Assembly (NCBI GenBank): GCA_965649765.1
Contig: OZ287759.1
Location: 1,860,001-1,924,000, forward strand
Direction of reading: 5' to 3'
Length of the DNA stretch: 64,000 nucleotides
From: Bispira polyomma
Taxonomy: Eukaryota
Positions within the stretch are counted from its first letter, which is position 1. Each line of letters begins with the position of its first letter. Both the position numbers and the translations under genes were made by a program. Under the pieces are notes generated by a model that was not told the origin of the DNA, made no database searches, and saw only the letters and a list, made by a program, of their open reading frames with translations. Shown piece after piece: positions 8,226-45,205 of this stretch.

Positions 8226-8639
8226 CATCAGTTTCCTGTTGTTGTCTAATTTTTTATAAGTATTTAATTCATTGTCTATATTAGTAAAATCGTAATGCAT
8301 GCTATAGTCATTTGTAAATTGGCTTATAGCCAAATCACTTAACTTTAACTTAAAATGCTTATAGTTATGTTGATGCACAATGAGTGCATCATATGTAAAC
8401 CTCAACTAGTACGAAAATAATATGTTATAGTGTTCAATCAAAACTTGTATATAATCTAGTGTTAGATGTTAATTTTAGTGTATATGTGTAGAACTAATAA
8501 AGCCCAAAAAGTGCCTTTATGTGACTTGGTGTTTCTGTCCTTGTTTCTCTGACTTACATCATAAAAACCAATGAATGCTTACAGATATTCATACTTCAAT
8601 GGAATGACTTGGACTGTGGTCTGCAGCAATTCCACACAA

Positions 8640-9300
8640 ACAGGTGGCTCAGTTTGTGAGCACTTAAATATATATTTTGGCTATAAGATATATTATATTA
8701 AAGAAATGATAGAGTCAAGTGTGTGGTACCCAAAAAGTATATCACATTCTCTATGCTTATTTTGATACATTTTTTAATAATAAATAGTTGTATTTTATTC
8801 CACCAATAATTGCTTTTAACACAGTAAAACATTAGGTGTGTTTCATCTTCTAAATTATTTACAAGCCCACAATGGAGACTATCTTTAAAGCCCAATAACA
8901 CATTAAGAATCCTATATTAGAACCAGATAATGGTATTATCTGGAATGCAATCAAAACCTATGTCAAAAACCAATTTTCAGCCTGATGAATCTGCTCTACA
9001 CCCTAAGATTTTATCCCATTTTTGCTTGAGTAATAGCCACGATGGTGCAACATTAGGAAAATAGCCTTAAAATTTCTCTCAATCTGGGGCCTTAATTATC
9101 AAAGGTTTAAACTTAAAATAAATCTCAAACGCCACATACAAAGATTTCCTTATTAATGCAAATCACTTTAACATGTTTAGAGCTTTGAGTAAGAAACTAA
9201 AATATTTAGTCAGATTAGAGATATATTACTTGTACACAAAGATACAGTATGACAGATGGTGATATTGCAAGTCTCCTTAGCCTCAGAGACATCAGAGTAC
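8640..9300 (-). mobile_element. Tx1/L1-like LINE ORF2 C-terminal remnant (absent from duplication copy B)
   Basis: WF*YRIL...HCGLVNNLEDETHLMFYC...WNKIQ resembles the C-terminal zinc-knuckle region of L1/Tx1 ORF2. Boundaries are approximate. Confidence 0.6.
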
Positions 9301-10249
9301 TTCTGTCAGAAGATGAAATTATTTTTATGCTGGAATATTTTTGTGTAAAATAGTCTCTTTATTGTTATACCGCACAATTATTTATAATTGCACATCTGTC
9401 ATTTAGTTGACCCAATTTATATGTATATATTGTAACTGTACTTTGAGTACGAATGTATAATAAAACAAATAAATAATTTGAGTTACAGTTTAACAGATTT
9501 GATAAATACACTCACAGTGACATTTGGGATACAATGTCACAGGGAACATGATACAACATTTTTCTATATTAATAAAACTTTGGTATGGTCAGGATGGTAA
9601 AATACTCCCAGGAACAGACAAAAACATTCCATGTCAGTTATCAATTCTCATCCCACTGATTTAAAATGTAATAACTCAATGAAGCAGAATAAAAACAAGA
9701 GCCAATTATTGATACTTGTTTTGACAACACATGAACAGAAACTATTATCAAGGCCACGGACATTGAGAAAGTTTACACAAATCAGGTTATAAGATGACCT
9801 CAAACTAACTGAAGTAAGCTTTAACTGTAGACTTGTTAACAATTAGTTTTGTTCTTCGAAAAGGGAACGTAATACAGAATGACACAAATCTAAATTGAAA
9901 AAAAAAATTAAACTGACATTCAAGTATGAAACAAAAATAAAAGATGTCCCTGAACATTGTTAAATACCAAATATTCAATAATGTATCTCTCTAGAGAGTC
10001 AGATGCCTAATGCTTACAGACAGAGGAATTATCTCAGCCACTGATGTGGTAATATTTTGACGTGTAATTTGAGAGCTATTGTTATAATCTGGGGACGGTT
10101 TGTATAATCTTTATAAAAAGGACTCTTAAGATGGTAATGTTACGTGAAGGGATCAAAGATGCAGGCATTGGAAGATTTTTTATTACCCGCACCAAGGATA
10201 TTATTTCTTCACCAATTTCACTTGGTTGTTTTGTTTGTATTATACAAAA

Positions 10250-10372
10250 CTTTCACTGGCCTCTCACCAATGTGGGACAGTTTGTCGGGTACTTGGCAGG
10301 ACACTGGTTTATTCCACCATTAAATTTGGCCGTCTTCAAATGACTGAAGCTGTTGAAAGGGACGTAAAACCT
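10250..10372 (+). mobile_element. SINE remnant (3' part); second copy at about 62170-62290
   Basis: 3' end gctgttgaaagggacgtaaaacc matches the tail of the SINE at 19049-19208. Confidence 0.55.
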
Positions 10373-13300
10373 GACTATTTTCAAATTCACATAAATACAC
10401 AAACATAATAAGTAGACATGATCTAATGAAGAATCCATTGAAGTCTGGCAGATCTAGAAATTTGTTATCCAGTTTCCAGCTAAATCTCTTTTAACGGAAT
10501 TTTTTACATTGTGATTTTTTTTTCTCAAGCATGTTAACAAGTTAAAATAGTGTAAAACAGTGTAAATATTGTTTATATCACTTTAGTTCTTCTATGATTT
10601 GAGCATGATTTTTACATTCCTTTGGGGTTAGCTATTTTCTTGTGTTTCAGTTTAAATTGAAGATTGAAAACCATTACAGAGTTGTGTTCCGATGCCAAGG
10701 CGCAACAAAAAAGTGAGACAAATATAAAGTTTGATCCCTGAGATAACAAACAAACAAACAAACAAAAACATAACCTCTTTGGCAGAGAGGTAATAATAAA
10801 GACCGGAAAAGGGGTAACCATGTTTGTTAGATTTGAATAATTTGGTCAATTAAAGACATCTTTGTAATAAAACAAAAATAGCTTGGTTCCCTTTGCAGCA
10901 GTTATGCCAAAACAGTACAAACCCATAACAAAAGGTTTACTGAGTACAGCTTGTGAAGTAATGTTTTTATCACCAATCTTATTACTTGAAAAAAGAAGAT
11001 ACACGTAGCCTTATAACTAAGAAATATATATTAAGAACTACACAACTAGCAACAACAATTAACCTTTATAAACATAGATTTATATTTTCATCTATTTATC
11101 ATGTCTTTTTAAATTAGGATGACAAACGAGCCCTATTTGGACTTGACAGGCCGGATTTGCTTCTTATTGCAAGATTTGTTCACTAAGTTAAAGACACTTG
11201 TCATATCTTGGTCCTATGAGAGGCATATCTTTTTGATAGGCACAAATAAAAGTGCTACTTTTATGTGTCAGCTGCCATTTGATAAGATTCTACGTAACAT
11301 GTCTTAAAGTCACTCAGGGGCTAGATAAATCAAATTTTTGTTGAATATTATTGTTTTTATTATTATGGTATATTTGGTAAGGGTCTCATGTTTGCGCAAA
11401 GAGACCTATTGAAATTTTAATGAAACAGAACAAATTTTGGGCACACAAATGGATAGGGATACTCAACTGTATTCGTTTTTCCAACAGCCTATAATATAAG
11501 CTATGGGATGTTGTTTTTGGGTAAGCATACAGAAAAGTGTATTTGCAGGGGATGCTAAAGTTTGTTCATGATAGGTTTCAGAAGCTAAAGAAGTTAGTAT
11601 TTGGCCCACAGATTGTGTAGTGTGATTAGGTTGCAATAACATGATCTGATTTCACTTGAAAGCTGGATGTTTGTTGATGGACTATAGATGTTATATTCTC
11701 TGATAACATTTTTACATCACTTATACAGATTTTTAAAGATTTAATGCATGTTTTTTCACTTCCACTGTTTTTAAAAATATTGTTTTCACACTTTGTATTG
11801 CGACCAGAAAGGTCAACTGGGCTGGTGTCTATTTTATATGGCATTTAAGTATAAATTACCAACAAAATTAAATATTCCAATTCATATAGTCACCATCAAA
11901 AGCTTACTGCTGATTACCTTTTAATTCATTTTTTTCATCTGATGAGTTTATATAGTGCATTTATTGCATCAGGGGGTTTGTCCTGCCAATTGGGTTGTTT
12001 GTCACCAGGACAACAACTGAACCAATTTTCCAATTCCATTTTAGTTTAAAATATGTAATATGGTTTAAGAAAGAACTTTGGAGCAAGTACGAGTAGAAAA
12101 TGGAATGCAATTATTTAGTATCATTTTATTTTACATTAAACTTTCGTCTCATCCCAATCTGAGATTGAGACTTAGATGACCGTTTCTGATTAGAGGTCTT
12201 CTTATCTCATTAGGTCCCCAGTGTTACAGGCTAATGAACCATTGGGAAGAGTTGACAAAAAGGTGTTGACAAAAGTGTCAAACTTTTTTTCTGATTTATA
12301 AAATTGCTATTTTATCATAGTCTCTAAAGACAGGTGACATATCTGGGCTACTGATGTAAAAAGTCTGCTGTTGTGTAGATGGGGCAACAGTCAAAGTTCT
12401 GTGGACTAAATAAATTGTATTTTAAGTGTAGTTTCAACTAATAATCTATTTTTTTTAATTCATTTATAATTCAGTTTGAATAAACCCTTGTTAGGTCAAT
12501 CTCGTGATCTAATTAATAAGTCATAATGAATGATATATTTGTTGTACCTTACCACAGTTTTATGTACATAGTAGTAAAATGTTCACTCAGTATATAGCTT
12601 GGTTTTGTTCCCTCCCCTTAGTTACCTCCCCTTAGCTCCCTCCTTGTATACCCCCACATCCTTCCTTATGACCATGCTTTGTTTGTGGATTTCTCTATTG
12701 GTTATCTGGGTCTGTTTTTGCAGTTTAGAAGATCATTATGGTTCATTCAAAATCCATAACACAATACAATATCGGCAAGTCTGATCTTGAAACAAATATG
12801 TATTGTCAGCAATTATGTATTGTTTGTAAAAAATAATATAATTAACATTAAATAAATATTTCTCTTTAATGCATCTTGGAATATACAACGAAAACTTTAT
12901 TATTGTAAACAACAATTTATTAGCAACGAAAGTAATATTTAGTGGCTACAAAATAGTGCAAACGGGAAATATATCTGTTGTCATACAACAAAAATATGTA
13001 AGAGGCCAGTGACTGCGACGCAGGTGCTTCTCACCACTAGATTAACCCCTCATGGGTTAGAAGAAGGTGTGCAACGCTATCTCAAGTGAGAAATTTAGGG
13101 GTAAAATATTAATACCTTTAAGGACCTTGTCAGTCAGCAGTCGACGTCTATGTCATGAAACCCGCCATGAAACGTTGTGACGTCATGAAAGTGGGTCAAA
13201 GTATTCTCCCTAGGCATAGGAAAATGACTCTCCATGGGAGGCGAAAGTGGTGATGAGGTCAGTTTCTTCGTCTTGGTAGAGTGAATACTATCATTTGCAC

Positions 13301-22461: not shown

Positions 22462-22513
22462 GTGAGTATGATATCTATATTATTACTTTTTATTACGCAC
22501 TACACTATGTAAG

Positions 22514-22646
22514 AGTAGTAGTAAGGGGAGTGATTCACGCTGATGATTAGTGCCCAATTTGTGCCCAATCCCATGTACTTGTGCACAAAATGAAAAAAGC
22601 CCGTGACCTTGAGTCTTTTTGCCCTCTTATAGATTTTTTACTTTGA
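22514..22646 (+). repeat. Left terminal inverted repeat (133 bp)
   Basis: Starts AGTAGTAGTAAGGGGAGTG; reverse complement of 44673-44805 with 2 mismatches. Confidence 0.98.
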
Positions 22647-22829
22647 ATGATTACATTATGAATTGTCCTTTCTAATTGTTCTGTCATACCCAACATTATG
22701 GTTTCAGATTTCAAATTACTCTCGCATTCACAACTCAAATTTTGGGAACATCATAAAATACTATTAAACTATGTACATATTTTATTTATTTTTATATATT
22801 ATTATTTTTTTTTTTTTTACTTGCATTTT

Positions 22830-24542: not shown

Positions 24543-25055
24543 ATGTCTTCAAAATTTGAGAACACAGTAATCTCACCAGAATGTGTATATTGTGGTTTAA
24601 AAGACCCGCATATATGTGAGGCGCATATCAAGGGTAATCCTAGTGCACATTGCAAGACTTGTCATGGTCTCAAACCCCTGACAGAATTTTACTGCACAGA
24701 GATGGTGCATTTTAAATGTCTTTGGTGTAAAAAGTTCTACAAGTTTTCACCTAACCTTGTTATAGTTCATATTTTACTGTGTGAGAAAACTTTGGTCAAG
24801 ACCCTAGGAGAATACATGAAATGTGCCTGCCAGTGTCAACAGAGTGAATCTGGCTAGAATTTTGGAAAGAAAAAGACTGCAAATTCGTTCACTCTTACAG
24901 ATCCTGCACTTCCAGACGACTCCCCCTTTAGAAAAAGGACCTCTAAAGACACCACCTGCTCTCCTGCCAAAAAAACTAAGAGGACTCTACAAGTTTCTAG
25001 AGCAATACAAACTGACCTACCTCATAATGACTCTTTTTTATCTATGTACACCTAA
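24543..25055 (+). pseudogene. Cys/His-rich putative zinc-binding protein with basic, SP-motif tail (one in-frame stop)
   Basis: CxxC repeats (CVYC, CKTC, CLWC). The frame stays open 65 codons past the TAG at 24855, containing SPFRKR, SPAKKTKR and RAIQTD. Confidence 0.55.
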
Positions 25056-25836
25056 TATGTTTTGACTCTATTTTAGTTTTCTACTGATTTTGAAAATGTT
25101 TTTTTTAATTTATGTAAATATTCTTGCTTATATGTATAATTAATACCTAAATGTTTAAGGCTAATAAAATTTGTGAACTTACAAACAATTATTATATCAT
25201 TGCCTGATTTCAGTCTTGATCTTCTATTTACTTATCTCTGTGAGGACAGGTGACAAATTGTGGGAATCTTGCACAAACCAAACATAAAATCATTTACTGT
25301 AAACCATGAAACCTTTTTTTATTGGATATTTTCCTCTTTTTAAAACTTTGAAATAAGAATTTGATTAAAAATACAATAAATGAACACTCTGCATAACTTT
25401 ATTTTCTTTCCACATTTTAAATAAAATATCTCATCTCTTGAACATTTACAATTTTCCAATTTACCTCTTCACACAAAAAAAAAATATTACGGTAATTTGG
25501 CAGAATTAACCTGTTCCTACTTTTTAAGGGGGGGGGGAGGAATTTTTTCTACAAATTTCTACAAAAATGTTTTAGAAATTTATTCAATTACATCATCTGC
25601 TCTATTCTTGGGAAGCTAACAAAAAATCTAATTCATCTTTTCCCCTCTAAAAAATTATTTTCCCTCCAAAAATATCCACCTGAAATTATTTAAACCTAAT
25701 TAACATCTCATGCATAAATTTGAAGAACCTTCATATAAAAAAGACAATTTATTTAGGAAAAAAATTAATTCCAATTTTTTTTTTTCTATGACTTTACTGA
25801 AGCTATTTATTTTGTGAAAAAATACTAGGAAAAAAA

Positions 25837-25986
25837 ATGTCTTTGAAGTGTCAATGGTGTAACAAAGCCTTAGAGGCTTATGTTATGCTCTCTTGTACAC
25901 ACACAACATGTGTAAAATGTTTTGGTGAATGTGAAGCGTGTATATACTGTGGACTACCATTTAATTATGGATTTTTCATCTATCAG
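25837..25986 (+). CDS. RING-HC finger, exon 1 of a predicted spliced RING/Gln-rich gene
   Basis: C-x2-C-x11-C-x-H-x2-C-x2-C-x6-C-x2-C; phase-0 donor CAG|GTTAGT after 25986. Confidence 0.75.
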
Positions 25987-26670
25987 GTTAGTATTTTGGA
26001 AACTATATTCTTCAAAGTTATGCATGAGATTTAAATTAGCTTGAAATAATTTGAGTGTCAAAACATTGTCTTAGAACGCTTTAAATAAACTATATTTCAT
26101 GAACATAAAGCAAAGGGACCTATTTCATTATTCACACTACATAGAAAATTTTTGTATTATAATAAAAAGATTTTATTTTACTAAATTTCTTTGAACAGAA
26201 GCATGCATTATAGGTCTTTTTTCTATCCATCAATAAAAACTATTTTCTCCAAAACAATTCAACTTAAGAAGGCTTCTGTCAATCTCTGTGTTAATGAATT
26301 CACTACCCCAAAGTTATACATACTATCATCTTTAACCATACATTATAAAATAACTTTACTTGTAACTTACTCATAACACCACTGTCCTAAACATAATATA
26401 ATTTGAAATTCAAATAATAGAGGCTGTAGCTGGAGGTAAAAGAATAATATCATATATAAAGAAATTTGGAAACCCAGAACATTTTAATAAGGCATACTAA
26501 TTAAATTTAAAACTCATCTTCCTCTTGTCATATTCTTAATTTACCCAAATTAATTTAGAATTCATCCTCCTCTGTTTCTTTCCTAGATAAAGACCTGGTC
26601 ACCATCCTGTTTGCACCCTTACCTTTATCCCCTTCCTTGTCTACCTTAGGTTTAACCTGAGTTTCAGAAT

Positions 26671-27035
26671 TTACTGGGAGGGCCTTATAAACAATGTGGT
26701 TTCTTCCTCGTCATTTTGTTCAAGATCCCCCATATCAAATGCTGGTACCCTAAACCTAACACCCTGTCCCCTACACCTTTTACATCTAACCAAAATAAAT
26801 ATAATCACTGTGGGAATACCTCCAGCTACAGCCCCTATCGATAAACTTATTTCAATAATGTGTATTGTTTCTCTCTTGTTTTCCTCTGCTTCATCATCAC
26901 CCTCCTGTCCATTCCTCTCGTCTTCCTTCACTTCCACCCTCCCCTCTTCCTTCATTTCCCCCCTGTCCTCTTCCTTCACTTTCACCCTATCCTCCTCCTT
27001 CTCCTCCTCTTCCCCTTCATCCTCACCTGGTTCAT
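26671..27035 (-). CDS. Type I membrane protein A, last exon (acidic stalk, TM helix, cytoplasmic tail)
   Basis: Acceptor tattctatattgtag, phase 1. Glu-rich stalk, TM IIEISLSIGAVAGGIPTVIIFILV, stop-transfer RCKRCR. Confidence 0.65.
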
Positions 27036-27087
27036 CTACAATATAGAATACATATACCACCTATTAATATTTTTTGACTCTATTTAG

Positions 27088-27909
27088 CAACCAGCATGGG
27101 TGATCCCCATTACTGCCCAGCAACCGGAACAGCAGTCTCAGCGACACCTTCAACTCTTACTACCTCCTCGCCAGCAGCCACAACAACAGGCTGTTCACCC
27201 TCAACAGCAGCACCTAAAACAGGCTGATCAGTCTCAACAACCTCGTCAACCTCAACAGCCACACCTACAACAGGCTGATCAGCCTCAACAACAGGCTCTT
27301 CACCCTCAACAGCAGCACCTACAACAGGCTGATCAGTTTCAACAACCTCGTCAACCTCAACAGCAGCACCTACAACAGGCTGATCAGCCTCAACAACAGG
27401 CTCTTCACCCTCAACAGCAGCACCTACAACAGGCTGATCAGTCTCAACAACCTCGTCAACCTCAACAGCAGCACCTACAACAGGCTGATCAGCCTCAACA
27501 ACAGGCTCTTCACCCTCAACAGCAGCACCTACAACAGGCTATTAGGTCTCAACAGCTGCCACAACATCAGGCTGGACAGCCTCAACAGCAGCACCTACAA
27601 CAGGCTATTCGGTCTCAACAGCTGCCACAACATCAAGCTGATCAGTCTCAACAGTAGCTCCTACAACAGGCTCTTTGGCCTCAACAGCTGCCACAACATC
27701 AGGCTGATCAGCCTCAACAGCAGCTCCTACAACAGGCTCAGCATCCTCAACTACATGACCTACAACAGGCTGAGTACCAATTTCAAGAGTTACCTCTACT
27801 CAGTCTTCAAGATTTAGATGATTTTGAAGATTTTCTGAGAGGGGAGACAATGAATTCCTCTATGGAGGTTAATGTTGACTCCTCTAGTGAGGATGAAGTT
27901 TACTACTGA
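27088..27909 (+). pseudogene. Gln-rich repeat + acidic tail, exon 2 of the RING gene (one CAG>TAG stop)
   Basis: Phase-0 acceptor tttttgactctatttag. Frame-preserving 105-nt and 66-nt tandem units; continues past the TAG at 27655 to LSLQDLDDFEDFL...DSSSEDEVYY*. Confidence 0.7.
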
Positions 27910-28320
27910 TGTAGATTTTGAAGAAGTATCTTATTATCACTCAGTAGTAGATTTTGTAGACGTATCTTAATATCATCTTTTTTATTTCTTTTATTAACTC
28001 AGTAGTAGATTTTGTAGAAGTATCTTACTATCACCTTTTTTATTTCTTTTTTTAATTAAATCTTTTAAAAACTTCTCTTCCAAAGTCTCTTATTTCTATC
28101 AACACAGAACAATAATCATTTATCACAAATTTGTTATTGAAGTGTATTACTGAATCCTTTTTTATACAACTATGTAGATTTTCTAGAACTATCTTAATAA
28201 TACCTTTTTATTTATTTTTTAAAATGAATATTAAATGTATATTAAATGTTTTGATAACTTCACCTTCAAAGTCTATTTTTTCTAACAATAAAGAACAATA
28301 ATCATTTCACACAACTGTGA
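27910..28320. repeat. Local degenerate repeats (gtagattttgtagaagtatctta x4, plus a ~190-bp-period duplication)
   Basis: The motif recurs at ~27912, 27947, 28005 and 28173; caaagtct..gaacaataatcattt at ~28081 and ~28267. Confidence 0.7.
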
Positions 28321-28425
28321 TATTTTTATTTGATTTGTTTTCACAATAACTACACCACCTCCTCAAACAAATAATTCTACCACCACCACCTTAAAGATTT
28401 CTACATCTTAACTAGCTTATAATAC

Positions 28426-28727
28426 CATTTGTCAATTCAGTACATCCTTTGTCAGCTCAGGTATGGGATAATAGGTACAGTCAACTTGGCTACGGACAGT
28501 CTGGAGCACCATTTTAGGAATATTTTCCTTTAAAAGGAAAGTGTCTATCTGAGTGATCTTTCTCTCGTATATAATCAAAATACTGATTTATCATCCGAGA
28601 TTTTGTAAATGTTTGCATTTGTCACAAGCCTGCAATACAGCTTTCCCCCCCTCAGAAAACAACATTCCTGTGCTTCCCCCAACCCCATCCAACAAACTAA
28701 AATAGTGCTCAAAATTAAACACCTCAT
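28426..28727 (-). pseudogene. Type I membrane protein A, signal peptide + Cys-capped ectodomain exon (frameshifted; not in the ORF track)
   Basis: MRCLILSTILVCWMGLGEA|QECCFLRGGKLYCRLV..., then after a frameshift LIIYERKITQIDTFLLKENIPKMVLQTVRSQVDCTYYPIPELTKDVLN. A strong acceptor tttttttgtttgtag lies just upstream of the ATG. Confidence 0.6.
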
Positions 28728-29260
28728 ATTTATCACCTACAAACAAAAAAGATATCTATCAGATATGGATATAGTCATTTGAGAGACAAAACAAATAATC
28801 TCTCATCCCGTTTTACAACGAGGTCATGAATAAAAAGAATAAGCTAACTACTTGATTTGCTCGGGGCTAAACTTCACCCGTCTGCTGAGAAATGTTTCCT
28901 AGAAATACCCATAAGATGCAACAACATTCAAAATTAAACCACCATTTAATTCTAAAAACCATAGAAATGCAAGAAATAGACTAATTTTACAGTAGAATTT
29001 CGTTTATAGTAACTGGACGAATTGTCTGTCCCTGATCGAATAAGGTGTCCGTGCAAGTTGCCTGTTCCGTTTTTCCGAATTAGGTGCCCGCCCGAATCTT
29101 GTGGACTGTCTTACCACCTCCGAGTCATATGGCCCCTCCGAATTGTATAATTTAAACAATAATTGTCCTTCCTTGAATATTACTCTTGTTACTGTTTTAC
29201 CTGAATCGAATATCCTCAAATCTTATGAACCATTTCATATCACAATTGTCAATAATTACT

Positions 29261-29487
29261 GCTTGTGTTTATAATTCGATTGCCTGACATAAATTGGACA
29301 CCATATAATAAATGTGTCATAACTTCAAATTAAATAACTTTATTGACCTAACAATACTGTACTTCCTTGAATATTGGTACTGTAATTGTTTTATATGAAA
29401 CTCGTGGTCCATTTTCTACCTAGATTATTATTTAAAATTTGACAGTCGATTTACAACTGGCGGACGAATTATAACCAGAGGCAGTAC
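29261..29487. repeat. ~220-bp direct repeat, copy 1 (copy 2 at 31835-32045)
   Basis: Shared blocks cataacttcaaattaa, tattgacctaacaata.tgtacttccttgaatatt and cgaattataaccagaggcagtac. Confidence 0.9.
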
Positions 29488-29880
29488 ATTAAACTGTCAG
29501 GTGACATTAATAACACCCTCCACCAATTAAGATCAGCCACCAATATACATCGGTCTGTCAGTCCTGTGTCAGTCAAATCCGAGCAGTTACAAACTGTATA
29601 TATGATCGGATGATTTACAACTAGCGGGCGAATTTTAAACACAGGCAGTATAACCACATAACGCTGTGTAACCCTTTAATGCATATTTTATATTTTTCTC
29701 ACCTCAAATCTTTCTCAAAACTGAAATAATCAGAGATTCCAAGATATTATATTTTCCAAAAGTCGCTTTCAAGGTGACCTTTCACTCTCTACCCTTTACC
29801 GAAATTTCAGTTTGTACTAAATATCATTCTAAAACTTATTCGAATAAGATATTTTTTAATACAATGGTAACATACCGTGA

Positions 29881-30980
29881 TTATTGAAGGGACAGACTAT
29901 CAAATGATCCGAAGGTTGTATCTAAATCTACTTCTATATCTATGTCTCCTCCATTCACATTATCATAACTTTTATAGATATTTTCTTCAACTTCCTCTTG
30001 GTGGTTGTGTAAATGTTGACATTGAGGTTTTTCATACCTATTACAAGAAAGAAATTATTAAAACTATTTTTCTGAAATATTTCTGTGATTAAAAAATTGG
30101 TTTTATATTTTAAATATTAAAAAAATAATTAATTAATATAACTAATATACCAATCACTGTCATTTTCGAAGAATTCAATCTCTCTGGAAGCTGTATATAT
30201 GGGATTAGGTTCCATTTCAAAATCTTCCAATATTAGGTTGTTTGGTGGACTGTTGGAGCTTGCATGTTGTTTTTTACAGTTGCAAATAACTACTGTTATT
30301 CCAAAAATAAAACTCAGTAGAGTACCGATTACAGCTATAATGATAGCTATATCATTAGATATTCCAGTATTACCCTTTGGAGTGATGACAACATCGACTG
30401 TAAAGTCACTGACTGAGCTTATTTCATTTTCTACATCTGCTATGGTAGGGGAGGTAATTTCTGATACATAATTGGAAGTAGTCAGTTCTGGTACTGTATA
30501 TTTAACTGTGTGCACTAGTACTTTTGATGCTCGAAATCTCAGCGGTACTTGAGTAGAAATCTCAGTACTTAACTCAATTTTTGTAACCTCGATAATGGAG
30601 TTGGTGGTCAAGGATGAGGTGGTGCTTTTCAATCCAACAGTGGTCAAAGATGAGGTAGTGGTTTTCAATGCGACACACATGTTGGTGATAATTTCAATAT
30701 CTTTAGGAATCTGATTAAGAATATCACAATCAAATTCTCTCATGGAAATAAATGAAATCCAATATATCTTCGGAAAACTATGAAGAATAACTTGGATATC
30801 CATAAGTTTAACATCCTCAAAATATACCCTTTCAACTAGAGTATTTCTCCCTTCAAATTTCGGGTTATTCACACTCCTACAATTCACTAAAGTTAACCGA
30901 CAAGTACACCTGTAATCACACATTTCTATTGACAGGAATGATATTATACTCAAAAGCAATAGAATCTTGAAGTGAGTCAT
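29881..30980 (-). CDS. Type I membrane glycoprotein B, two exons (30980-30151 + 30037-29881, 328 aa), apparently intact
   Basis: Signal peptide, LRRNT-like CDYRCTCRLTLVNC, Ser/Thr-rich stalk, TM IAIIIAVIGTLLSFIFGITVVI. A 113-nt phase-2 GT-AG intron restores W-YEKPQ...ENIYKSYDNV...SLSLQ*. Confidence 0.8.
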
Positions 30981-31695
30981 TTTAATAGAAATTATTTTAA
31001 AATTTGTTAATTCAATGTCCTATTATATACCACTAGTTCACAGAAATTTATATGTAACTGTTCTCTCCAGTACCCACAATCAAAACTGATTCATTTCTAC
31101 AAACTCTCTATTTCTCAAGTTCTGGATCTTCTATCTCTTGCATAAATAAACATAGCCGCCAAACATAATATCATTAATCTCCTTATAATTGTCACTTTTA
31201 TTGCTCTCTCTGTTTTGGATACAATCTTAACTGTTTTATTACCTAAACAATTCAGTTGAAGTAGATGAATATATAGAAACTGACTTTTCAGTTTGGAACT
31301 AAGAGTATGTTTCCATACAGACGATTGTTTTTTATATTATTTTTTTAGGAGATTTGTAATGGCTAGTTTTTTTTGTTTTTGTTTTTTTTTTTTTTTTAAC
31401 TAGACCGAATAATGAATCCCTATTTAGTGAGATTCCTTGCTGTTATTTTGAAGGCTGAATCATGAAAAGGGACAGAACGGCTTCCATAAGGAAAATGTTG
31501 TAAATCAAAATTGGCATATATAGAGGTAGAATCTGCTAAAAATAAATACACCCCCTCATTCCTTATATATGATATAGTTGCCGATTTTGACTTATTCCAT
31601 GCCAACGAGGTACAGATCAATTAATATAAAATAAAAACGAAATCACAATCACTGAAACAACACTGTCGGGCATGTTATGACAATTTAAATTCTTT

Positions 31696-31832
31696 TAATT
31701 ATTTCCTCAACAATTATTTTCTCGTCATTTGTTTCTACGACAATTATTTTCCTCGACATTTGTTTCTACGTCAATTATTTCCTCGACAATTTATTTCATC
31801 GACATTTATTTCTGCGTCAATTATTTTTTCTA
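31696..31832. repeat. 15-bp minisatellite, about 9 copies
   Basis: Alternating caattatttcctcga and catttgtttctacga units. Confidence 0.9.
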
Positions 31833-31834
31833 TT

Positions 31835-32045
31835 GCTTGTGGTCATAAATCGACCGCCTGTTATAAATCGGCCACCATACAATAAATGTTTCATAACTTC
31901 AAATTAATTTAATGTATTGACCTAACAATATTGTACTTCCTTGAATATTATTATTGTAATTGTTTTACTTTAATTCTATGGTCCATTTTGTACCAAGACT
32001 ATCAATAATTACAACTGGCGAGCGAATTATAACCAGAGGCAGTAC
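31835..32045. repeat. ~210-bp direct repeat, copy 2
   Basis: Matches 29261-29487. Confidence 0.9.
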
Positions 32046-32548: not shown

Positions 32549-35500
32549 ATGGAGTGTCCATATTGCCACAAGTTTCTGCAAAGGAAAATACATCTTCAAA
32601 GACATTTAACTATTAGTCGAATTTTGAGGAGTGTTAAAAAAATATTATGTCTATTTTGTCAAAGTCACTTTACTGATGTTAACACTTTAATAAGACATAT
32701 GAATACCTGCATTCCTTATCATTTGTCTCTTAATGTTATAGCCAAGTGTTCTTTTTGTAAGAAGTGTTTCAAAAATACAGATCAAAAAGAAAGCCATGAA
32801 AAAAGATGTTTAAAATGTTATAAATGTGGAAGTATTCTAAAAAGTCTTATAGAAAAGAACATTCATCTTAAAAATTGTAGAGTTGACAATTTGCAACAGA
32901 GGATGGAAAAGATTGTACTCATAAAATCAAACGTGTTAAAATGAATGAAAGGACTCGTGAATCTAGGTTTTGAGAATTTGAAAGATTATGATGATATAGA
33001 GAATTCGGGTAATAAACACCTAAATTTTCTTTGTAAAAAATGTAAAGTTTATTTTGATACAAACTGGGATTTGTATATTCATAATATCTCGTCCCACAAC
33101 CAAACAGGTAGGCAAAGAGTCTTACAAGAACCAGTTCTAGAACCAGATTATGAATTTGAATCTGATGATATGGCAAGAGCATACAATACCAATGTGCAGC
33201 ATATATTAGCTCAACACAACAGAGGGGCTTTAAGGTCAACCTATAATTTTCCAACTAACGATCTTTCTAGGGGAATGTGGGAAATTTCAGATCACTTGAA
33301 TGAAATTTACAATGACCAAAACTACGCCTTTAAAATTAACATATCACTAGGTCTGATTCTCAGAAATACTGGAAATGATGAGTACTGTTATTACGTACCC
33401 TTTTATAATAATCAAGTTTTTCCAGTACCTGTAACCATATCTCGCAGAGCTAATATCAGACATCTCTTTCTCAGAATTAGGCGATTAGATATCCCCGATT
33501 TCATTCGACAACAGAGACCAAACAGTAAATGGGTCCCCGCAATGATTACAAATATAAATTATGTTGTATTTCCTACCTCATATCCTTTAGGTAAATTAAT
33601 TGGTTCTCTCCCAGGTTACATAAAGAATTCTCGAGCAATTAGGGGTTGGATAACAATAGTGGAGGTAATTTTTATGAAGATAATTTATGTGCGTTTAGAG
33701 CTTAGGTGCTACATAAACAAGGAGAAGAAGAAGATTGTGAGAAATTGTTAAACTACCATTATCAATGGTGTGATTTTAATAATAAAGAAGAACATCATTC
33801 CAATTTTTCTGGATTAAATTTGAGTGAACTCGACCTTTTCGAAAATTGTTTTAAATTAAATATCAATGTTTATTCACTAAAACCACAGGGTGTGGTATAA
33901 ACGGTTTATAAATCTATGGAAAATTTTAAACAAACTATGAATCTAAATCTCTATAAAAATCATTTAAGGTATATTCAGGACATTTCTCTATATAGTAAAA
34001 CATATCAATGCATGGAATGTGAAAAAATCTTTAAAAATTAATTTAAACTGAAAACTCATCTTGATAAATGTTTTAACAGAACACGATACATATTCCCAGG
34101 GGGGTTTTACTCTTCACCCAGAAGCATTTTTGATAAGTTAGAGAGTTGTGGAATAATGGTTGATTCACAACGAAGGTTTTATCCTTACTTTGCTGTTTAT
34201 GATTTCGAATCTGTTTTATTGAAGGAACAAGACACCACCTTAGACTGCAAATTAAAATATACTGTTAAACATAAACCCATCAGTGTTTCAGTTTGTTCAA
34301 ATATAGTGCGTTATGAAACTGCCAAATGTTTTATTGAAACGGATGTAGATAAACTTCTCCATAAAATGATCAACTATTTGTGTGAAATAAGTGAGGTAGC
34401 TGCACGATTAGGACAAGAAAGAAGGGAAGATGTATTTGAACAAATTGTTTGTTTGAAAGAGAACAATTTGCAAGGACAATACACTCATAAACACATTGAA
34501 GGTCTAGAAAACGAATTTGAAAGATACATATCACAAATACCAGTTTTAGGATTTAATAGTGGAAAATATGATTTAAATTTGATTAAAGCAGAATTAGCTG
34601 GACACTTGTTTAAAGACGGAGAAAAAGGTAACTATACAATCAAGAGAAACAACAATTACTTATCTCTAAATTCGAGTAAATTTAAATTTTTGGACATTAC
34701 TAACTATATTGCACAAGGAGTTAGTTACTCTAAGTTTCTCAAGTGTTATGAAGTAGAAGAAACCAAAGGTGTTTTTCCTTACGAATGGTTTGATTCAGTA
34801 GAAAAACTTGAATGGACAGAATTACCACCTTATGAGTCATTTTATTCGACATTAAAACACTGTAATGTTCTGGAAACATATGAAAATTATACAATACTAC
34901 AAAAATCATGGAAAGAAAAGAAGATGATAAATTTTAGAGATTACTTACAATGGTACAATAATCTTGATGTAGAACCTTTCTGTACTGCTATAACAAACAT
35001 GCAGGAATATTACTTTAATAAAAGTATTGACATTTTCAAAAATTACATTTCAGTTCCAGGAATTGCTAGAAAAAGCTTTTTGATTCTACAGATGCTAAAT
35101 TTGCTCTATTTGATAAAAACAATAGGGATTTATATGATACCATGAAAAATGGAATTGTAGGGGACCATCTATTATTTTCAGACATTATCATGAGGTTGAC
35201 AAAACTTTTGTTAGAGAAAATAAATCCAAACCAGTCAAACATAGAAGGAAGGGATTCCAATGCATTATATCTCTGGAGAATTTCCCAACCTATGGCTACA
35301 GGAATATATGTACGAAGACATAAAGATAAGGCTTTCAAAGGTGAGGTACCAATGAAATATTTAGAACAATTCATCTGGATAGATTACGTCGCTGAACAAG
35401 AAAATGTTCAAATACAACACGGTTTAAATTCAAGAGGAGAATAACGAATTGGCCCCTACTTAGTAGATAGATATGATGCAAAGAATAAAAGAGTGCTGGA

Positions 35501-37411
35501 ATTTTTAGAATGTTTCCATCATCAACATAGAAACTGTCCCTTAATAGGAAAAAATCAAAATCCAAAATATCATAAAGACAGAGTCATTTCTAAAAAGGGA
35601 AATAGAACGAAAAGACTACATAAAATCTTTAGGATATGACATAGTTGAAATGAGGGAATGTGAGTATCAAGCAGATATTAAGCACAAAACAGAACATATC
35701 AGAGAAAAATATTTATCCAAATTTTATATCAAACACAAAGGTAAGGTTTCAAGCTCTAAACTCATTGAGGCTGTTAAAACAGAAGAAATATTTGGAGCAA
35801 TGGAGGTTGATATAGAAGTGCCTGATTCTTGGAAAGAAACTAACATCTTTTCGAATGGACTCTCCCCAAGTGATTACTTTAGTGAAATGTCCCCTTTCTT
35901 TGCAAGGACAGAGGTACCTTTTGAGGTTGTAGGAGCTCACATGCAGAGACATGCAGAGAATTTTGATTTATCTAAAAAACCTAGAAATTCATTGGTTGGA
36001 GGAATGAAAGCAGAAAGAATTTTTTTAGCCACACCCCTTTTAAAATGGTATTTAGAACATGGTATAGAAATCACTAATATATATCAGGTTGTAGAATATG
36101 TTCCGAAAAATTGTTTTAAAAATTTTAGTCAGAAAATATGTGATAGAAGGAGAGAAGGAGATTTAACCCCTGACAAGGCCCTAATAGCTGAGCTCTCGAA
36201 ACTTTTGGGAAACAGCGGCTTTGGGGGAACAATTATGTCCAAGGAGAGACACCTGGATATTAAATATGTGAAGGGAGAAAGAGAGGCAAGTTTATTAGTC
36301 AATGTCCCTACTTTTAAAAATTTAACTGAATTAGGAAACAGTATGTATGAGGTTGAAAAGTTTAAAAATAGAATTAAACTTGATTTACCAATTCAAATTG
36401 GTTATTTTATTTTACAATATGCCAAGTTAAAACTGTTGTCTTCTTATTATGATTGTCTAGACAGATATATTCCGAGATCAAACTTTGAAATGTTAGAAAC
36501 AGACGCAGATAGTGCCTACTATGCACTTAGTCAAAGTTCTTTTGAAAAAAAGTATTAGACCCTCCTTACTGTCTGAATATCGGAAAGATGTGTGTGGTTT
36601 TTGTTCAAATCTTATCACTCCGAAGTGGTTTCCTAGATTGTGTTGTTCAAAACATATAACTTTCGACAAAAGAACCTTGTCTTTATTTAAAATTGAAAGT
36701 CTTGCTACTAAAGCTATATGCCTGAATTCGAAGACATACATAATGAGAGAACTAAATGAGTCTGATAAAATTTTTTGTAAAGGCATATCAAAGTCAAGTC
36801 TCAATAATGCCATGGAGTTGTTTGAAAGTGTGCTTCATAACCAAATACCACTTTCTTCAACCAATATCGGTTTTAGAGCAAAAAACAATATAATTTTTAC
36901 TTACACACAGGATAGAGCAGGCTTCTCGTACTATTATATCAAAAGGGAGGTTTTGGATGACGGAATTCATACCAAACCATTAAACATGGTTTTGAAACCA
37001 TGGAAACAAAAAATTGTTATAGTTGAAAATGATCTTGACCTACTATCAAACGGTTTTTGCTTTGAGTTGAAAGTCGATGGAAAGACGTATTCAAGTGTTG
37101 AAGAATACTTTCAAGAAAGGGAACATGATTTCAATCCAAATGCAAACACTAGTTTGGAGGAGAATTGGGAGTGGTTTCAAGAAAGAGACAAGATTATGCA
37201 AGAAATTTTAAAATTAAAAGTAAAACAGTGTTGTAATTTTGCTCAGATCTTAAAAAATACTGGGAATTCTTATATATGTTACAATGCTTCAGATAATTTG
37301 TATTGGAATGTGGGTTTACCGCAGAGACTAGTGAAGGTTATAAATAAAGATTCTCATCCAGGTCAAAATCAAATGGGAGAGATATTGATGAAAGTTAGAG
37401 AAACATTATAA
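32549..37411 (+). pseudogene. Protein-primed DNA polymerase B with N-terminal zinc fingers, internal nuclease-like insert and C-terminal NADAR-like domain
   Basis: ZnF CPYC..HLQRH; exonuclease motifs VYDFES, FNSGKYD and YNNLDV; KGVFPYEW; polymerase motifs DSNALY, KLLGNSGFG and ETDADS; end YIKREVLDDGIHTKPL. Multiple stops and frameshifts. Confidence 0.95.
37037..37411 (+). other. NADAR/YbiA-like domain in frame with the pPolB C-terminus
   Basis: LLSN..F..KVDGKTYSSVEEYFQ / W...RDKIM.EILKLKV.Q...F.QILKNTG / YW.VG / PGQNQMGEILMKVRETL follows the NADAR consensus LSNF..DG..Y.S.EHYFQ...KF.Q....L..TG...WG.G...G.N.LG..LM.VR..L. Confidence 0.85.
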
Positions 37412-37413
37412 AA

Positions 37414-38046
37414 ATGTCCATAAAATTTGAAGATCCAGCAAGTATACTTATTCCTGGTTGTAGTAATTCTGGTAAAACCACTTTTCTGTATCAGTTGTTA
37501 AAGTGTAAGGATGCAATGTTCCAGAAACCTGTATGTAAAATACTATACTGCTATTCTCTTTGGCAAAATATTTTTGATAAACTACAAGATGAAATAAATA
37601 TAAAGTTCATTAAGGGTCTGCCTGAGGAGATAGAGATAGATAGCATGAATGACGGGAATCATAATATTTGTATAATAGACGATTTGCAGGAAGAAGTGTC
37701 TGGAAATAAAGTTATTGAAAAATTATACACAACCCTCTGTCATCATTATCACCTCACAGTAATAACTATTTTACAAAATTTATTTTATCAAGGTAAAAGC
37801 TTAAGAACAATCAATTTAAATAGTCATTATTTGATATATATTTAAAAACCCCGAGATATAAATCAAATAATGTATTTAGGAAACCAAACTGGGTTAAAAA
37901 AGACTTTAGAAGAAGCATATAAAAATGCAACAGACGAAAGCTACAATTATCTCTTAGTTGATCTCTCTCTGCACTCATCTACCCAATATAAATTAATAAG
38001 TCATATTTTGCCGAAAGAAGATACTGTGGTATATCTTAGAAAGTAA
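37414..38046 (+). pseudogene. A32/FtsK-like genome packaging ATPase (frameshift near 37840)
   Basis: Walker A GCSNSGKTT, Walker B ICIIDDL, ILQNLF, RTINLNSHY, then FKNPRD and YLLVDL in another frame. Confidence 0.95.
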
Positions 38047-38835: not shown

Positions 38836-39959
38836 ATGGACGAAAATCAGGAAAAATATCTACACAACCTTTATTACAATCCAAAAAATGCAGTGTCTTA
38901 TAGTGGTTTCAATAAATTTTATAGTTTCATCTAAAAAAACAGTCAGCAAAATTTTTCCAAAAAGGATATTAGGGAATGGTTGGGAAAACAAGATGCTTTT
39001 GTCTTGCATCGACCTGTGATAAGACATTTTAAATGTCCAATTACCATTGCAGTGAGAAAAGATCAACAATGGAATTCAGATACAGCCAATATGAGAAAGT
39101 TTGAAAAAGTCAATAAAGGTTATGGTCATTTTTGTGTAGTGATAGATACTCTAACTAGATATCTGTGGACCTTTCCAATGCAGACACTGACAGGAATAGA
39201 AATGAAAAAAGGTTTTGAAAATTTAATGAAACAGATAAAACCAAAATTTCTATTCACTGACAAAGGCAATGAGTACATGCCTAATATTTAGATTGGTTAA
39301 AGGAAAAAGGAGTTCAACATTTCATGAGCACCAATGAAACAAAGGTGGCGATGGCTGAAAGAGTAATAAAAACAATCAAACTAAAACTGTACCGAAGGAT
39401 GACAGCAGAAAACAATTATAAATGGAATGATGCGCTTGCTAGTCTCACAGAGTCCTACAACAATTCCTTTCATAGAATGATTAAAACCACTCCTTCAAAG
39501 GCGAGGGAAATGGATGATTATGAGTTATGGAAAAATCAATATATTAAAGACTACGATGTGAAAAAACCAAAATTAAAGAAACACAAAAAACCAAGATCAG
39601 AAAAATTACCTTATAAATATAAAATAGGAGATATAGTAAAGGTTGCGTATCTATCCAGACCTTTCGAGAGAGAATATGATGAGAAATATTCTGGTGAAAA
39701 TTTCACCATTGCTGATAGAAATATAAATCAGGGTAAGGCTCAGTACAAATTGAAAGATCTAAATAACGAACTAATATTGGGAAATTTTTTTAATAAGGAA
39801 TTGCAAAAGGTTTATGTTTCTAAAGAGACCACATATCGAATAGAAAAAATTCTGAAAAGTAGAAAAAGAGGGGGTAAAAAGGAATATTTAGTAAGGTGGG
39901 AAAATTATTCCTCAAAATTCGATAGCTGGGTGAAGGAAGAAGACATTCAGGATATATAA
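38836..39959 (+). pseudogene. Retroviral-like (RVE) integrase with C-terminal chromodomain
   Basis: LYYNPKNAVSYSG; DDE triad WNSD, TDKGNEY and AERVIKT; YNNSFHRMIK; chromodomain YRIEKILK..EYLVRWENYSSKFDSWV. Stop and frameshift present. Confidence 0.96.
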
Positions 39960-40675: not shown

Positions 40676-40771
40676 TGAATATACCTTAAAAAATATATAC
40701 ATATATAGTGTTAGAGTCAAATAATCTTTAGTTCAATTCTTGCTTTTGAGTGAATAAAAAACAAAATTAAA

Positions 40772-42075
40772 ATGAATGTCTTACAGGAAAAGGTGGCTCT
40801 ATTTCAAAAACTTTTGATAGATCCATCAGTCCATCATATTGATTGGGTTGAATACAGACCAACCGGTCAAATTAAAAGTGGAAATGTAATTGAATTTAAT
40901 GTAACAGGGGATGGGGCGGATTATATAGATTTGAAGAAAAGTAGATTGCATATTTCAATGAAAATTACAAATAGTAATGGAAGTGACTTAGCGTCGACTG
41001 CTATAGTTGGTCCCGTCAATTTAACATTACATTCTCTCTTTCGTCAGGCAGATCTAACTCTACAGCAAATCAATATTTCACCAGGTGTTGGAATTAACTA
41101 TCCATACAAAAGTTTGATAGATGTATGGTTACATAATAGTTTTGTGAGTCAGCAGGGACAGTTGGAAAATGAATTGTTTGCAAATGACACAGCTGATACT
41201 CATAATGATGTAACTGGAGATGACAATATAGGGTTTGCTACTAGGCAAGACAGATGTGCAGCAAGCACAGTAGTGGACTTATGCGGCCCCTTACATGTGG
41301 ATATTGCCGATCAAGATAGACTCATTGTAAACAGAGTGCAGATCAATCTAAAATTATATCCCAGCACTGATAGATTCAGATTAATGACAAAGGATGGAGA
41401 TAAGGAGTATAAGATAGAAATTATTAATGCTGCTTTAAAGATCTGTCAGGTAAAATTAAGTCCCGAGCTCGTACTAGCTCATGCAAAGGCTTTGAAGGTG
41501 GGACCAGCATTATACCCTTTCTGGCAAAGCAAATTTAAGACTTTTACCATACCAAAAGGTAATATGATGTGGAGTGATGATGGAACCTTTCATGGAGAGG
41601 TTCCTAGCAAATTAATTGTGGGTTTTGTTCCAGGAGAAGGTTATAGCGGTAGCTATACTGTAAATCCATTTAAATTTCATCACTACCATTTAAATTACTT
41701 GGAATTCAGTGTAGATGGTGTGCCCGTTCCATGCAGACCACTTCGATCAAATTATAAAGAAGGATATTTGACTAACAGACCTACTTTTACTGGAGGACAA
41801 TACGCAGAAGCATATAATAGCTTGTTTTCTTTGGAGATATGGTGAAAATGAGAACAATCTTATTAAATATACAGATTATCTGAATGGATATTGTCTTTAT
41901 GTGTTTAATATAGACAGTAAATGTGAGTGGTGAACTTAAATCAGAACGTAAAAAGGGTCACACAAGAATAACTGTAAATTTTGGAAAAGCTTTAGTAGAA
42001 AGTGTAACTGCAATATTATATGCTCGTTTCCCATCTATGTTAACTATTGATGAGGCAAGAGTTGTAGAACAATGA
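40772..42075 (+). pseudogene. Major capsid protein (double jelly roll), C-terminal frameshifts
   Basis: WVEYRPT, YIDLKKSRL, PVNLTLHSLF, NYPYKS, NPFKFHHY; ends KGHTRITVNF...TIDEARVVEQ* with the stop overlapping the protease ATG. Confidence 0.93.
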
Positions 42076-42518
42076 ATACTTCTGAAATAAAAGAAAAAAT
42101 GTTGAATGATAGATTCATCAGCAAATATTATGGCGGTGTATATGCAGCAAATGAATTACCAGTAAAATTTCAAAATTTACCTAAAATTCTGATTGTAAAC
42201 ACAAAACCTTACCCTCATGAAGGGGAACATTGGGTAGCAATGTATGTAAGTAAATAAGAGGCGGAATATTTTGATTCTTTAGGTGATTTAGCTCCGAAAA
42301 GTTATGAAAATTTTCTGTTGAGACATCAGGAGAGTTATAGCAAAAATAACGCAAGAGTACAAAGTTACAAGAGCATGTTATGTGGGGAATATTGTCTATA
42401 TTACGCTTACCATAAATTTAGGGGAAAGAGCTATACTGATATCTTAAAGACTTTCGATAAAGATTATAAAGTTAATGATGTGAATATAAAATCATTTTAT
42501 ATTTCGAAATTCATTTAA
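42072..42518 (+). pseudogene. Adenain-like cysteine maturation protease (one in-frame stop)
   Basis: NT...GEHWVA, EYFDSLG, VQ...CGEYC catalytic motifs; both ORF pieces are in the same frame. Confidence 0.95.
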
Positions 42519-42910: not shown

Positions 42911-43025
42911 ATGAATAAATTATGAATTGTGAGTAATGTTTTGGTGAAATAAAAGAAAATGACTCAATTTTAAAAAAGGATATAAATTGGGAAAGCAACC
43001 ACATTGCAGTCAGAAAGGAAACAAG

Positions 43026-43640
43026 ATGGCAGAGAATACAACTCAAAGGAGAACAAGGGAAGATGAGACTGACTGTGTTGTTGCAGCCTCTGCATCTAGT
43101 TATAGAAGAAGAATAGATATGCAAGACAGAATAAGTGAACTGACAAAAAAGTTCTGCAATTTCCAATGTGAAGAAGAATCACTGGCTATGACTAGGGATT
43201 GGGTAGATTACAAAATCTTCAAAAACAGATTAGAAAGTTTCAGAGGTTGGCCAAAAAGTACCGGAGTGAGTGGAGAGGATGCAGCCAGGGGGGGATTTCG
43301 ATACACTGGTTAAGGTGACAGTTGTGTATGTCCGTGGTGTTACATGCAGGTGAAGAACTGGAAACACTTTGATGAACCGTTGAAAATGCACTCCAAACTC
43401 AACCCAAATTGCGAATACGTGCAAACTGTATTCCCTAGTGAATTGTCAAAAATTGAAAGAGGTAATTATAAGTTGTATCAAAATCGTCTGGAAAGCTACA
43501 GAGGGTGGAGCGATGGCAAGATAGTAAAACCAGAAAAGTTAGCCAGAGCTGGATTGATGTACACTGGTTTAGGGGACAGATGTCAGTGCCTCTGGTGTTC
43601 TATAATTTTCCATTCCTAGGAGTACCTGGACGAACCCTAA
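43026..43640 (+). pseudogene. Inhibitor of apoptosis-like protein with two BIR domains (stops; second BIR truncated)
   Basis: RLESFRGWP..AARGGFRYTG*GD..CPWC-x16-H-x6-C; RLESYRGW..LARAGLMYTGLGDRCQCLWC. Intronless. Confidence 0.93.
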
Positions 43641-44626: not shown

Positions 44627-44672
44627 AAGAAGGTGGTAGTATGTGGAGGTAGCAAAATCCTAATGGATTCAA

Positions 44673-44805
44673 TCAAAGTAAAAAATCTATAAGAGGGCAA
44701 AAAGACTCAAGGTCACAGGCTTTTTTCATTTTGTACACAAGTACATGGGATTGGGCACAAATTGGGCACTAATCATCAGCGTGAATCACTCCCCTTACTA
44801 CTACT
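44673..44805 (-). repeat. Right terminal inverted repeat (133 bp)
   Basis: Ends CACTCCCCTTACTACTACT, followed by TSD TGTAAG. Confidence 0.98.
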
Positions 44806-45205
44806 TGTAAGGTACTCTATTACGATGATATATCGACAAAAAATTGTTTTAAAGGGCGCCAATGAAAATTTATTACAAAAAGACATTTTCGTAACTTTCT
44901 AAAGTTTAAATGTGGAATTTAATCATTTTTGAAACCAGTTATTGAGCTAAATTTACAAATTGATAAAATAGATATCTTAAACAATATTTTAGTACATACA
45001 AGTCAATTTTACACCATTTTAAACATGATTTTGAAGCGATTGTTTTGGGTACCAACTTTATACTTTTATCGTTCTTTCGTTTCAAACTTGCATTGTGACA
45101 TCATGATAGAGAGAAGGTTTTCAAATGTCAACAATGTTTACTATTTTAGGTCAGTTTTTCTTATATTTTGTTTGATTTATAACATGATAATAAAATTACT
45201 GTTCA

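Follow-up and report, generated by a model that had tools for sequence, protein, structure and literature searches.

Why should two genes on opposite strands each carry an exon inside the intron of the other, and what would keep such an arrangement in place? The question is raised by a locus of Bispira polyomma, within a stretch of 64,000 nucleotides (assembly GCA_965649765.1, contig OZ287759.1, positions 1,860,001 to 1,924,000 of the forward strand; hereafter the window), where a sequence-only reading had proposed a spliced pair of this kind. The locus forms the left arm of a decayed Maverick/Polinton mobile element of 22.3 kb (22514-44805). We examined it together with its relatives in the same 1.03-Gb animal assembly, which was searched with tblastn and protein queries (own-genome searches). 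Judged from conservation, not from RNA, it is very probable that two genes are interlocked as described: gene R, on the plus strand, encoding a RING domain followed by an acidic tail, and gene M, on the minus strand, encoding a signal peptide, a predicted mini leucine-rich-repeat (LRR) ectodomain and a transmembrane (TM) segment.

Structure and recurrence of the interlocked locus

Along the window the exons stand in the order RING (plus), TM (minus), acidic (plus) and signal peptide/mini-LRR (minus), with junctions in phase 0 on the plus strand and phase 1 on the minus strand (Table 1). The plus-strand join from 25986 to 27088 was borne out in its coordinates, its sites and its frame: exon 1 of gene R (150 nt) ends at the donor CAG/GTTAGT (the slash marks the exon boundary) and exon 2 follows the acceptor TTTAG/CAA at 27087/27088. 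The minus-strand exons, joined from about 28426 to 27035, likewise have the sites proposed for them, the donor AATG/GTATTA after 28426 and the acceptor TGTAG/AT before 27035, both in phase 1. This join had been thought the less certain of the two and in need of a one-nucleotide repair; the doubt was misplaced, because the junction is in phase as it stands, and across families it is as well supported as its plus-strand counterpart. The damage lies instead within the exons. The reading frame shifts twice in exon 1 of gene M, near 28586 and again near 28450, and that of the TM exon shifts near 26677; an in-frame stop at 27655-27657 in exon 2 of gene R had been overlooked. Three of the four exons are broken, which makes the copy of the locus in the window a pseudogene. 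Of the 17 close sister stretches listed, 6 have exon 1 of gene M as one uninterrupted frame of about 106 codons, and the end of the TM exon in sister copies maps to about 26555, not to 26671 as first read.

Own-genome protein searches gave 63 matches to the signal-peptide exon and 53 to the RING exon, many of them convergent, about 3 kb apart and 29-59% identical. The window, its 17 close sisters and 40 fetched stretches made up a set of 58 loci, labelled as families A-F by protein similarity, with no tree. The arrangement claimed for the window, each gene with an exon in the other's intron and the two acceptors back to back (52 nt apart there, 52-85 nt across families), recurs with its order intact in all six families, at 29-60% protein identity. 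Conservation of the splice sites across the family, which had been proposed as a check, was seen as follows: a motif scan found all four sites in order in 19 loci (5 of family A, 13 of B and 1 of D), and reading by hand completed the four in L056 (family C) and L064 (family F), giving 21 of the 58; in family E the sites are spread across two damaged copies. A Maverick ATPase of 62-94% identity is found 7-11 kb away from those copies of families B-E that were checked; none is listed for family F.

Several features vary among these copies. The ATPase of L056 is 94% identical to that of the window and its accessory exons just 35-55%, hinting at module exchange or fast accessory evolution, and a fragment of a long interspersed nuclear element lies inside its minus-strand intron. 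The motif CTATTATCC[GA]AA, in both orientations and at a spacing of about 100-170 nt, occurs inside the RING intron of family B (L041-L059, L068, L075-L077) and also inside the membrane-gene intron of a group of Mavericks that we call G (L107, L113, L119); it is absent from the window. These repeats may possibly be an enhancer or origin array.

Evidence for splicing and for selection

A test free of splice motifs took the points at which tblastn matches to the RING exon end. GT follows in 42 of 46 cases (GC in 1, other letters in 3), and all 42 have AG at +4/+5 with a variable +3 (T, C, A, G), as in a 5' splice site. A bare GT does not single out this point, since it is frequent also at +4 and at a Cys codon; coding conservation ends at the donor, and an unspliced RING frame stops after 2-24 unconserved codons. 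At the minus-strand donor the glycine codon is GGT in 35 of the 35 located, against 39% GGT among the Gly codons of these exons, although the independent count is small because the loci fall in four families. L066 and L076 keep both sites of the RING gene and have lost the TM exon (a remnant of it persists in L066), a pattern that fits the two plus-strand exons as one unit.

In close pairs the ratio of nonsynonymous to synonymous differences per site (pN/pS), computed on the assigned strand, was 0.07-0.09 for the RING exon, 0.25-0.26 for the signal-peptide exon, 0.22-0.35 for exon 2 of gene R and 0.54-0.61 for the TM exon; when the same codons were read antisense, it was about 0.9-1.8. By this measure all four exons are under purifying selection on the strand assigned to them. 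Three sequencing runs of unknown kind gave even cover over introns and repeats with no splice joint among the rows listed, and therefore behave as DNA. No processed, junction-bearing copy was found among the fetched RING loci, a set smaller than the genome.

Two other structures were tried and rejected: a continuous minus-strand frame through the Gln repeat of gene R, which is absent from every copy listed, and an invertible central cassette that would swap exon partners, since the phases differ (0 and 1).

Predicted products of the two genes

The ligand pattern of a C3HC4 RING is present in exon 1 of gene R, and its seven Cys and one His do not vary among the 8 exons aligned. The second exon had been described as Gln-rich, which is right for the subfamily of the window (family A), to which the Gln repeat is restricted, and wrong elsewhere, where an acidic exon of 41-106 aa takes its place; the conserved part is acidic, and is not the Gln tract. 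By analogy with viral RING regulators, the joining of a RING to an acidic tail points to an E3 ligase (likely nuclear) or a transcription activator. TATA-like boxes similar to that of the window were recognised by eye in most other families. A 48-nt inverted repeat (88%; 25680-25727 and 26008-26055) flanks the TATA box and RING exon in the window and in family A sisters, and none was found around the RING exon in 7 other loci scanned.

Gene M would encode a membrane protein of type I, made up of a small LRR-like ectodomain, an acidic stalk, a TM segment and a basic tail. Hydropathy windows in the families checked reach 1.5-2.5 at the N-terminus and 1.9-2.6 at a single TM segment, as in a protein with a signal peptide and one membrane anchor, and the TRS motif of the tail is invariant. 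Modelling of the ectodomain (about 85 residues) gave a confidence score (pLDDT) of 86.2 once rows from group G were included, against 54.5 from six sequences before. In a structure comparison nearly all of the top rows are LRR proteins, and the model aligns to N-terminal LRR caps such as those of LRIM1, the TLR N-termini and GPIb-beta (Z 7.3, rmsd 2.5 over 82; Z 6.5, rmsd 2.7 over 75). Compared with such small extracellular LRR proteins the scores are middling, none with Z of 8 or more, there is no match in Pfam or, at E 0.001, in the PDB or viral libraries of Foldseek, and a shared fold gives no function. Outside the animal's own genome, searches at E 0.001 returned no homologue for the signal-peptide exon or the RING alignment among longer proteins, and the signal-peptide profile had no match among 1.84 billion representatives or among viral contigs, blanks that do not amount to absence. 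An acceptor-like sequence just 5' of the gene M ATG (28728-28760, minus strand) in family A, unseen in family B, suggests an intron in the 5' untranslated region (UTR).

Origin of the interlock

A group of more distant Mavericks serves as an outgroup: in group G the ATPase is 40-46% identical to that of the window, as compared with 62-100% in families A-E. The group G membrane gene is split at the same point after a GC motif, with a clearer donor (G/GTAA) and a phase-1 acceptor, and its ectodomain is matched to that of gene M by hhalign (E 1e-4, probability 57%, 94 columns). None of the 5 loci examined has an acidic plus-strand frame inside this intron. Since group G has the intron without the inner exon, it is likely that the minus-strand intron is the older feature and that the RING gene acquired its last exon within it. 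Six stretches beside ATPases of about 50% identity showed no comparable locus and are uninformative. In L117 and L118, of another Maverick group, an apparent three-exon membrane gene lies on the minus strand from about 2390 to 1170, with a signal-peptide domain, a Thr-rich stalk, a TM segment and phase-1 introns.

The predicted 3' ends bear on how closely the two genes are packed. In 12 of 13 loci a plus-strand AATAAA stands 93-146 nt before the minus-strand donor, as one does in L064 at about 100 nt; the placement is found in five families, where chance would give about 0.1 per family. If the signals are used, about 84% of the 2439-nt shared zone of the window would be taken up by the last exons and 3' UTRs of the two genes. 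The mature mRNAs are predicted not to overlap, because the poly(A) signals end short of the partner's exon 1.

On balance we think it fairly probable that this is a conserved Maverick accessory locus that arose by gain of an inner exon and was kept through lock-in and because it packs two spliced genes, with mature mRNAs predicted to stay apart, into a single stretch. The intron of gene M would have come first; a convergent RING transcript would then have run past exon 2 of gene M and recruited a last exon inside that intron, with an AT-rich spacer serving as acceptor on both strands and each transcript ending just short of the partner's first exon. Once formed, the interlocked pair would be locked, because moving or losing either gene whole cuts the other. 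Collision of polymerases on a single template would be a by-product and not necessarily a switch.

A number of points weigh against this account or against parts of it. As to the structure, 37 of the 58 loci, which were not inspected individually, are without all four sites (truncated, decayed, cut by the end of the stretch or missed by the motif), loci within one family are not independent, and the plus-strand acceptor AG, present in 33 of 34 located, has been lost from one family B copy (L043). The minus-strand donor (G/GTATTA or G/GTATAT) is a poor match to the 5' splice consensus past +3; the counts of minus-strand acceptors and the scan-based counts of plus-strand donors used patterns that require those letters and are partly circular; and protein-guided alignment biases pN/pS toward the sense frame. 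Splicing and 3' ends are what we infer from conservation. The minus-strand AATAAA, 64-196 nt before the plus-strand donor in 12 of 15 loci, is weak and absent in family C, and further hexamers occur within the two introns and, in some 3' UTRs, at earlier positions. As to the origin, polarity rests on ATPase identity and not on a rooted tree, and the convergent neighbour in group G is a different, double-RING gene that ends before the TM exon and is not matched by the RING profile at E 0.01. Packing is loose in family B, with 1.1-1.5 kb of sequence carrying the repeated motif between TM stop and RING donor, and packing alone fails to explain why the introns were kept, because intronless neighbours would be shorter.

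Alternative readings

This last difficulty invites a more elaborate version, which we regard as tentative: a reciprocal "borrowed intron" pair, in which the partner's last exon would supply the intron needed for expression in the host nucleus (for example by escaping surveillance of intronless foreign genes), the placement of the poly(A) signals would avoid double-stranded mRNA, and the interlock would also serve to switch between a RING activator, early, and a surface LRR protein, late. Having an intron helps against human HUSH silencing (PMC8770142; papers are cited here and below for the parts of their text that were available), and a similar benefit is a possibility here.

The switch may also be considered by itself. 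Early transcription of the RING/acidic regulator would block the late membrane gene by polymerase collision, and the reverse. Over about 2.1 kb the two primary transcripts necessarily cover the same sequence in opposite directions, the layout has outlasted synonymous saturation (pS about 0.6-1.0 between families), and a regulator paired with a surface protein would fit early and late roles. However, opposite-strand nested genes are often co-expressed (PMC12274878, PMC11694760), and outgroup G keeps convergent RING and membrane genes without the interlock, and a timing switch is unlikely as the explanation. Still less can be said for a pair of isoform switches, where the unspliced forms would be a bare RING and a secreted mini-LRR, splicing would add the acidic tail or the membrane anchor, and antisense traffic over the acceptors would bias the choice. 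Both first exons do reach a stop a few codons past the donor, each with a complete domain, the minus-strand donor is weak, and a sense AATAAA lies inside both introns; yet the read-through peptides are conserved in neither length nor sequence, and the intronic AATAAA positions vary by family, at a hexamer frequency of about 2 per kb anyway. We judge this reading quite improbable.

It is very improbable that there are four independent units, or second exons trans-spliced to an outside leader, whose order is kept by descent alone. The back-to-back second exons do resemble a divergent gene pair, but neither has a conserved start codon, donor and acceptor phases match in every family, the TM exon is without a signal peptide and the signal-peptide exon without an anchor, and outgroup G has the same intron. 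That the purpose is to make double-stranded RNA which would feed or decoy small-RNA silencing, for which the complementarity of the nascent transcripts across the shared zone could be invoked, is scarcely credible. The double-stranded RNA allowed for in the sequence-only reading is not supported for mature mRNAs: with the exons 52-85 nt apart and the predicted poly(A) signals placed before exon 1 of the partner, these would have no complementarity in common, and only nascent transcripts could pair. If the signals are used, this favours packing with lock-in over such production.

The host element and neighbouring features

The element has terminal inverted repeats (TIRs) within 100-1500 bp, a target duplication within 5-8 bp (6 bp, at 22508-22513 and 44806-44811) and a length within 13-25 kb; its TIRs, target duplication and length fall inside the Maverick/Polinton ranges given in the available part of PMC10748475. 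It has a packaging ATPase, with at least 150 ATPase matches listed across the genome, and an integrase, whose rve score is below the curated cut-off and whose gene is split, the chromodomain following. In the polymerase region (32945-37411) Pfam gave weak matches to Pox_F12L and PPL4 alone, with family-B-like motifs seen by eye, and a NADAR domain follows at 36497-37411. The frames at 40754-42518, without a match in Pfam, we take from motifs and gene order to be the capsid and the protease, an assumption that also enters in part into the polymerase label. Broken frames for a PC4-like protein and, near the right end (42963-43619), for a BIR (inhibitor of apoptosis) protein are also present.

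Table 1. Features of the interlocked locus and of the Maverick/Polinton that carries it (window coordinates)
Feature	Position	Strand	Remarks
Left TIR	22514..22664	+	begins AGTAGT; 151 nt
TATA-like box, predicted promoter	25734..25740	+	about 100 nt before RING ATG
Gene R exon 1: C3HC4 RING, 50 aa, ATG 25837, open in window	25837..25986	+	PF13920 E 3.7e-5, below curated cut-off
Predicted gene R intron, 1101 nt; exon 2 and predicted 3' UTR of gene M lie inside (other strand)	25987..27087	+	
Predicted poly(A) signal of gene M	26172..26177	-	191 nt short of gene R donor; less well conserved
Gene M exon 2, encoding an acidic stalk, a hydrophobic TM segment and a tail that bears the TRS motif	26555..27035	-	
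Spacer with both acceptors back to back, one per strand	27036..27087	.	52 nt
Predicted gene M intron, 1390 nt; exon 2 and predicted 3' UTR of gene R lie inside	27036..28425	-	
Gene R exon 2: conserved [QAH][PV]xW start, Gln repeat, acidic end	27088..27909	+	
Predicted poly(A) signal of gene R	28287..28292	+	139 nt short of gene M donor
Gene M exon 1: signal peptide and predicted mini-LRR ectodomain, ATG 28727	28426..28727	-	phase-1 donor
Neighbouring membrane gene in a single frame, with signal peptide, Cys-rich domain, S/T stalk and TM	30129..30980	-	
pPolB-like region (protein-primed DNA polymerase B), frameshifted, NADAR domain at end	32945..37411	+	motifs read by eye and position
A32-like packaging ATPase fragment	37414..37845	+	PF04665 (Pox_A32) E 0.0024, below cut-off; Walker A motif
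Retroviral-like integrase with chromodomain, frameshifted	38935..39959	+	PF00665 (rve) E 0.0032; PF00385 E 7e-11
Likely major capsid protein and adenovirus-like protease, both broken	40754..42518	+	frames at 40754 and about 42100-42518
Right TIR	44655..44805	-	151 nt, 95% identity to left TIR

The neighbouring membrane gene (30129-30980) is possibly a distant paralogue of gene M, with an hhalign probability of just 8.7%. It is one frame in the group of the window and apparently two exons in group G (L106, L107, L119), which appears to reflect intron gain or loss. Upstream of the RING gene lies a Cys/His-rich gene (24543-25050), a longer frame in sister copies; the window is without about 117 nt at 24844 that the sisters have kept. 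Very high-copy short repeats are inserted in the element at 29257-29490 and 31400-32000 (summed contig depth above 20,000), and a long direct duplication lies on both sides of it (585-11800 and 53850-63000, 88-97% identical, spacing 52-54 kb). Elsewhere in the genome, at G000:C5:44.91-45.03 Mb, a piece of an element has turned into a satellite: more than 50 decayed fragments of the Maverick ATPase stand there in tandem, with a unit of about 1.15 kb. L127 (5473-6490) carries a divergent histone H2B/H2A-like pair about 2-3 kb outside the stretch expected for the Maverick ATPase at C1:103334001.

Relation to known systems

With Maverick/Polinton elements (adintoviruses) the element shares TIRs, target duplication, the pPolB-like region, ATPase, integrase and the likely capsid and protease, and it differs in that its accessory genes have two exons, of spliceosomal type, interlocked on opposite strands. 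Neither 'splic' nor 'RING' occurs in the available text of PMC8502044 on Polintons, and for Polinton-like viruses the part of PMC12220804 at hand reports self-splicing group I introns alone. No report of interlocked spliced genes in Polintons was found in the literature searched, subscription papers, supplements and Repbase or other repeat databases (with possible Maverick intron annotations) being outside its scope. Because Polintons are annotated almost wholly as single open frames, spliced accessory genes would be missed or reported as fragments.

Interleaved genes are described as occurring quite often in the genomes of metazoans (PMC2291194, PMC11694760; also named in 10.1101/068627), and nested or interleaved animal genes likewise have exons within the intron of an opposite-strand gene. 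In contrast to these, the interleaving described here is reciprocal, minimal (two exons each), carried by a mobile element, centred on one acceptor spacer of 52-85 nt and conserved across families. In herpesviruses the intron of UL15 is filled by the opposite-strand genes UL16 and UL17 (PMC3079670), a one-way nesting of whole genes, whereas here each gene is both host and guest. Adenoviruses, which are related to Polintons, have spliced units that cross on opposite strands (E2/UXP and the late genes), the UXP promoter lying within the L5 coding sequence so that exons overlap exons (PMC7851563); here the exons never overlap, and the mature mRNAs are predicted to be non-complementary.

Membrane genes of two and three exons are likewise seen in other Maverick groups of the genome. 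Surface proteins and regulators that are spliced and appear to be under purifying selection point to expression through the host spliceosome during an active phase. The locus would be a compact, many-copy natural model of reciprocal gene interleaving, of which the outgroup without the inner exon makes both the origin and the regulatory effect testable. If the two genes are indeed a pair with borrowed introns, the genome would keep the state before the interlock, an empty intron, beside its later forms, and with it a dated natural series for the origin of interleaved genes.

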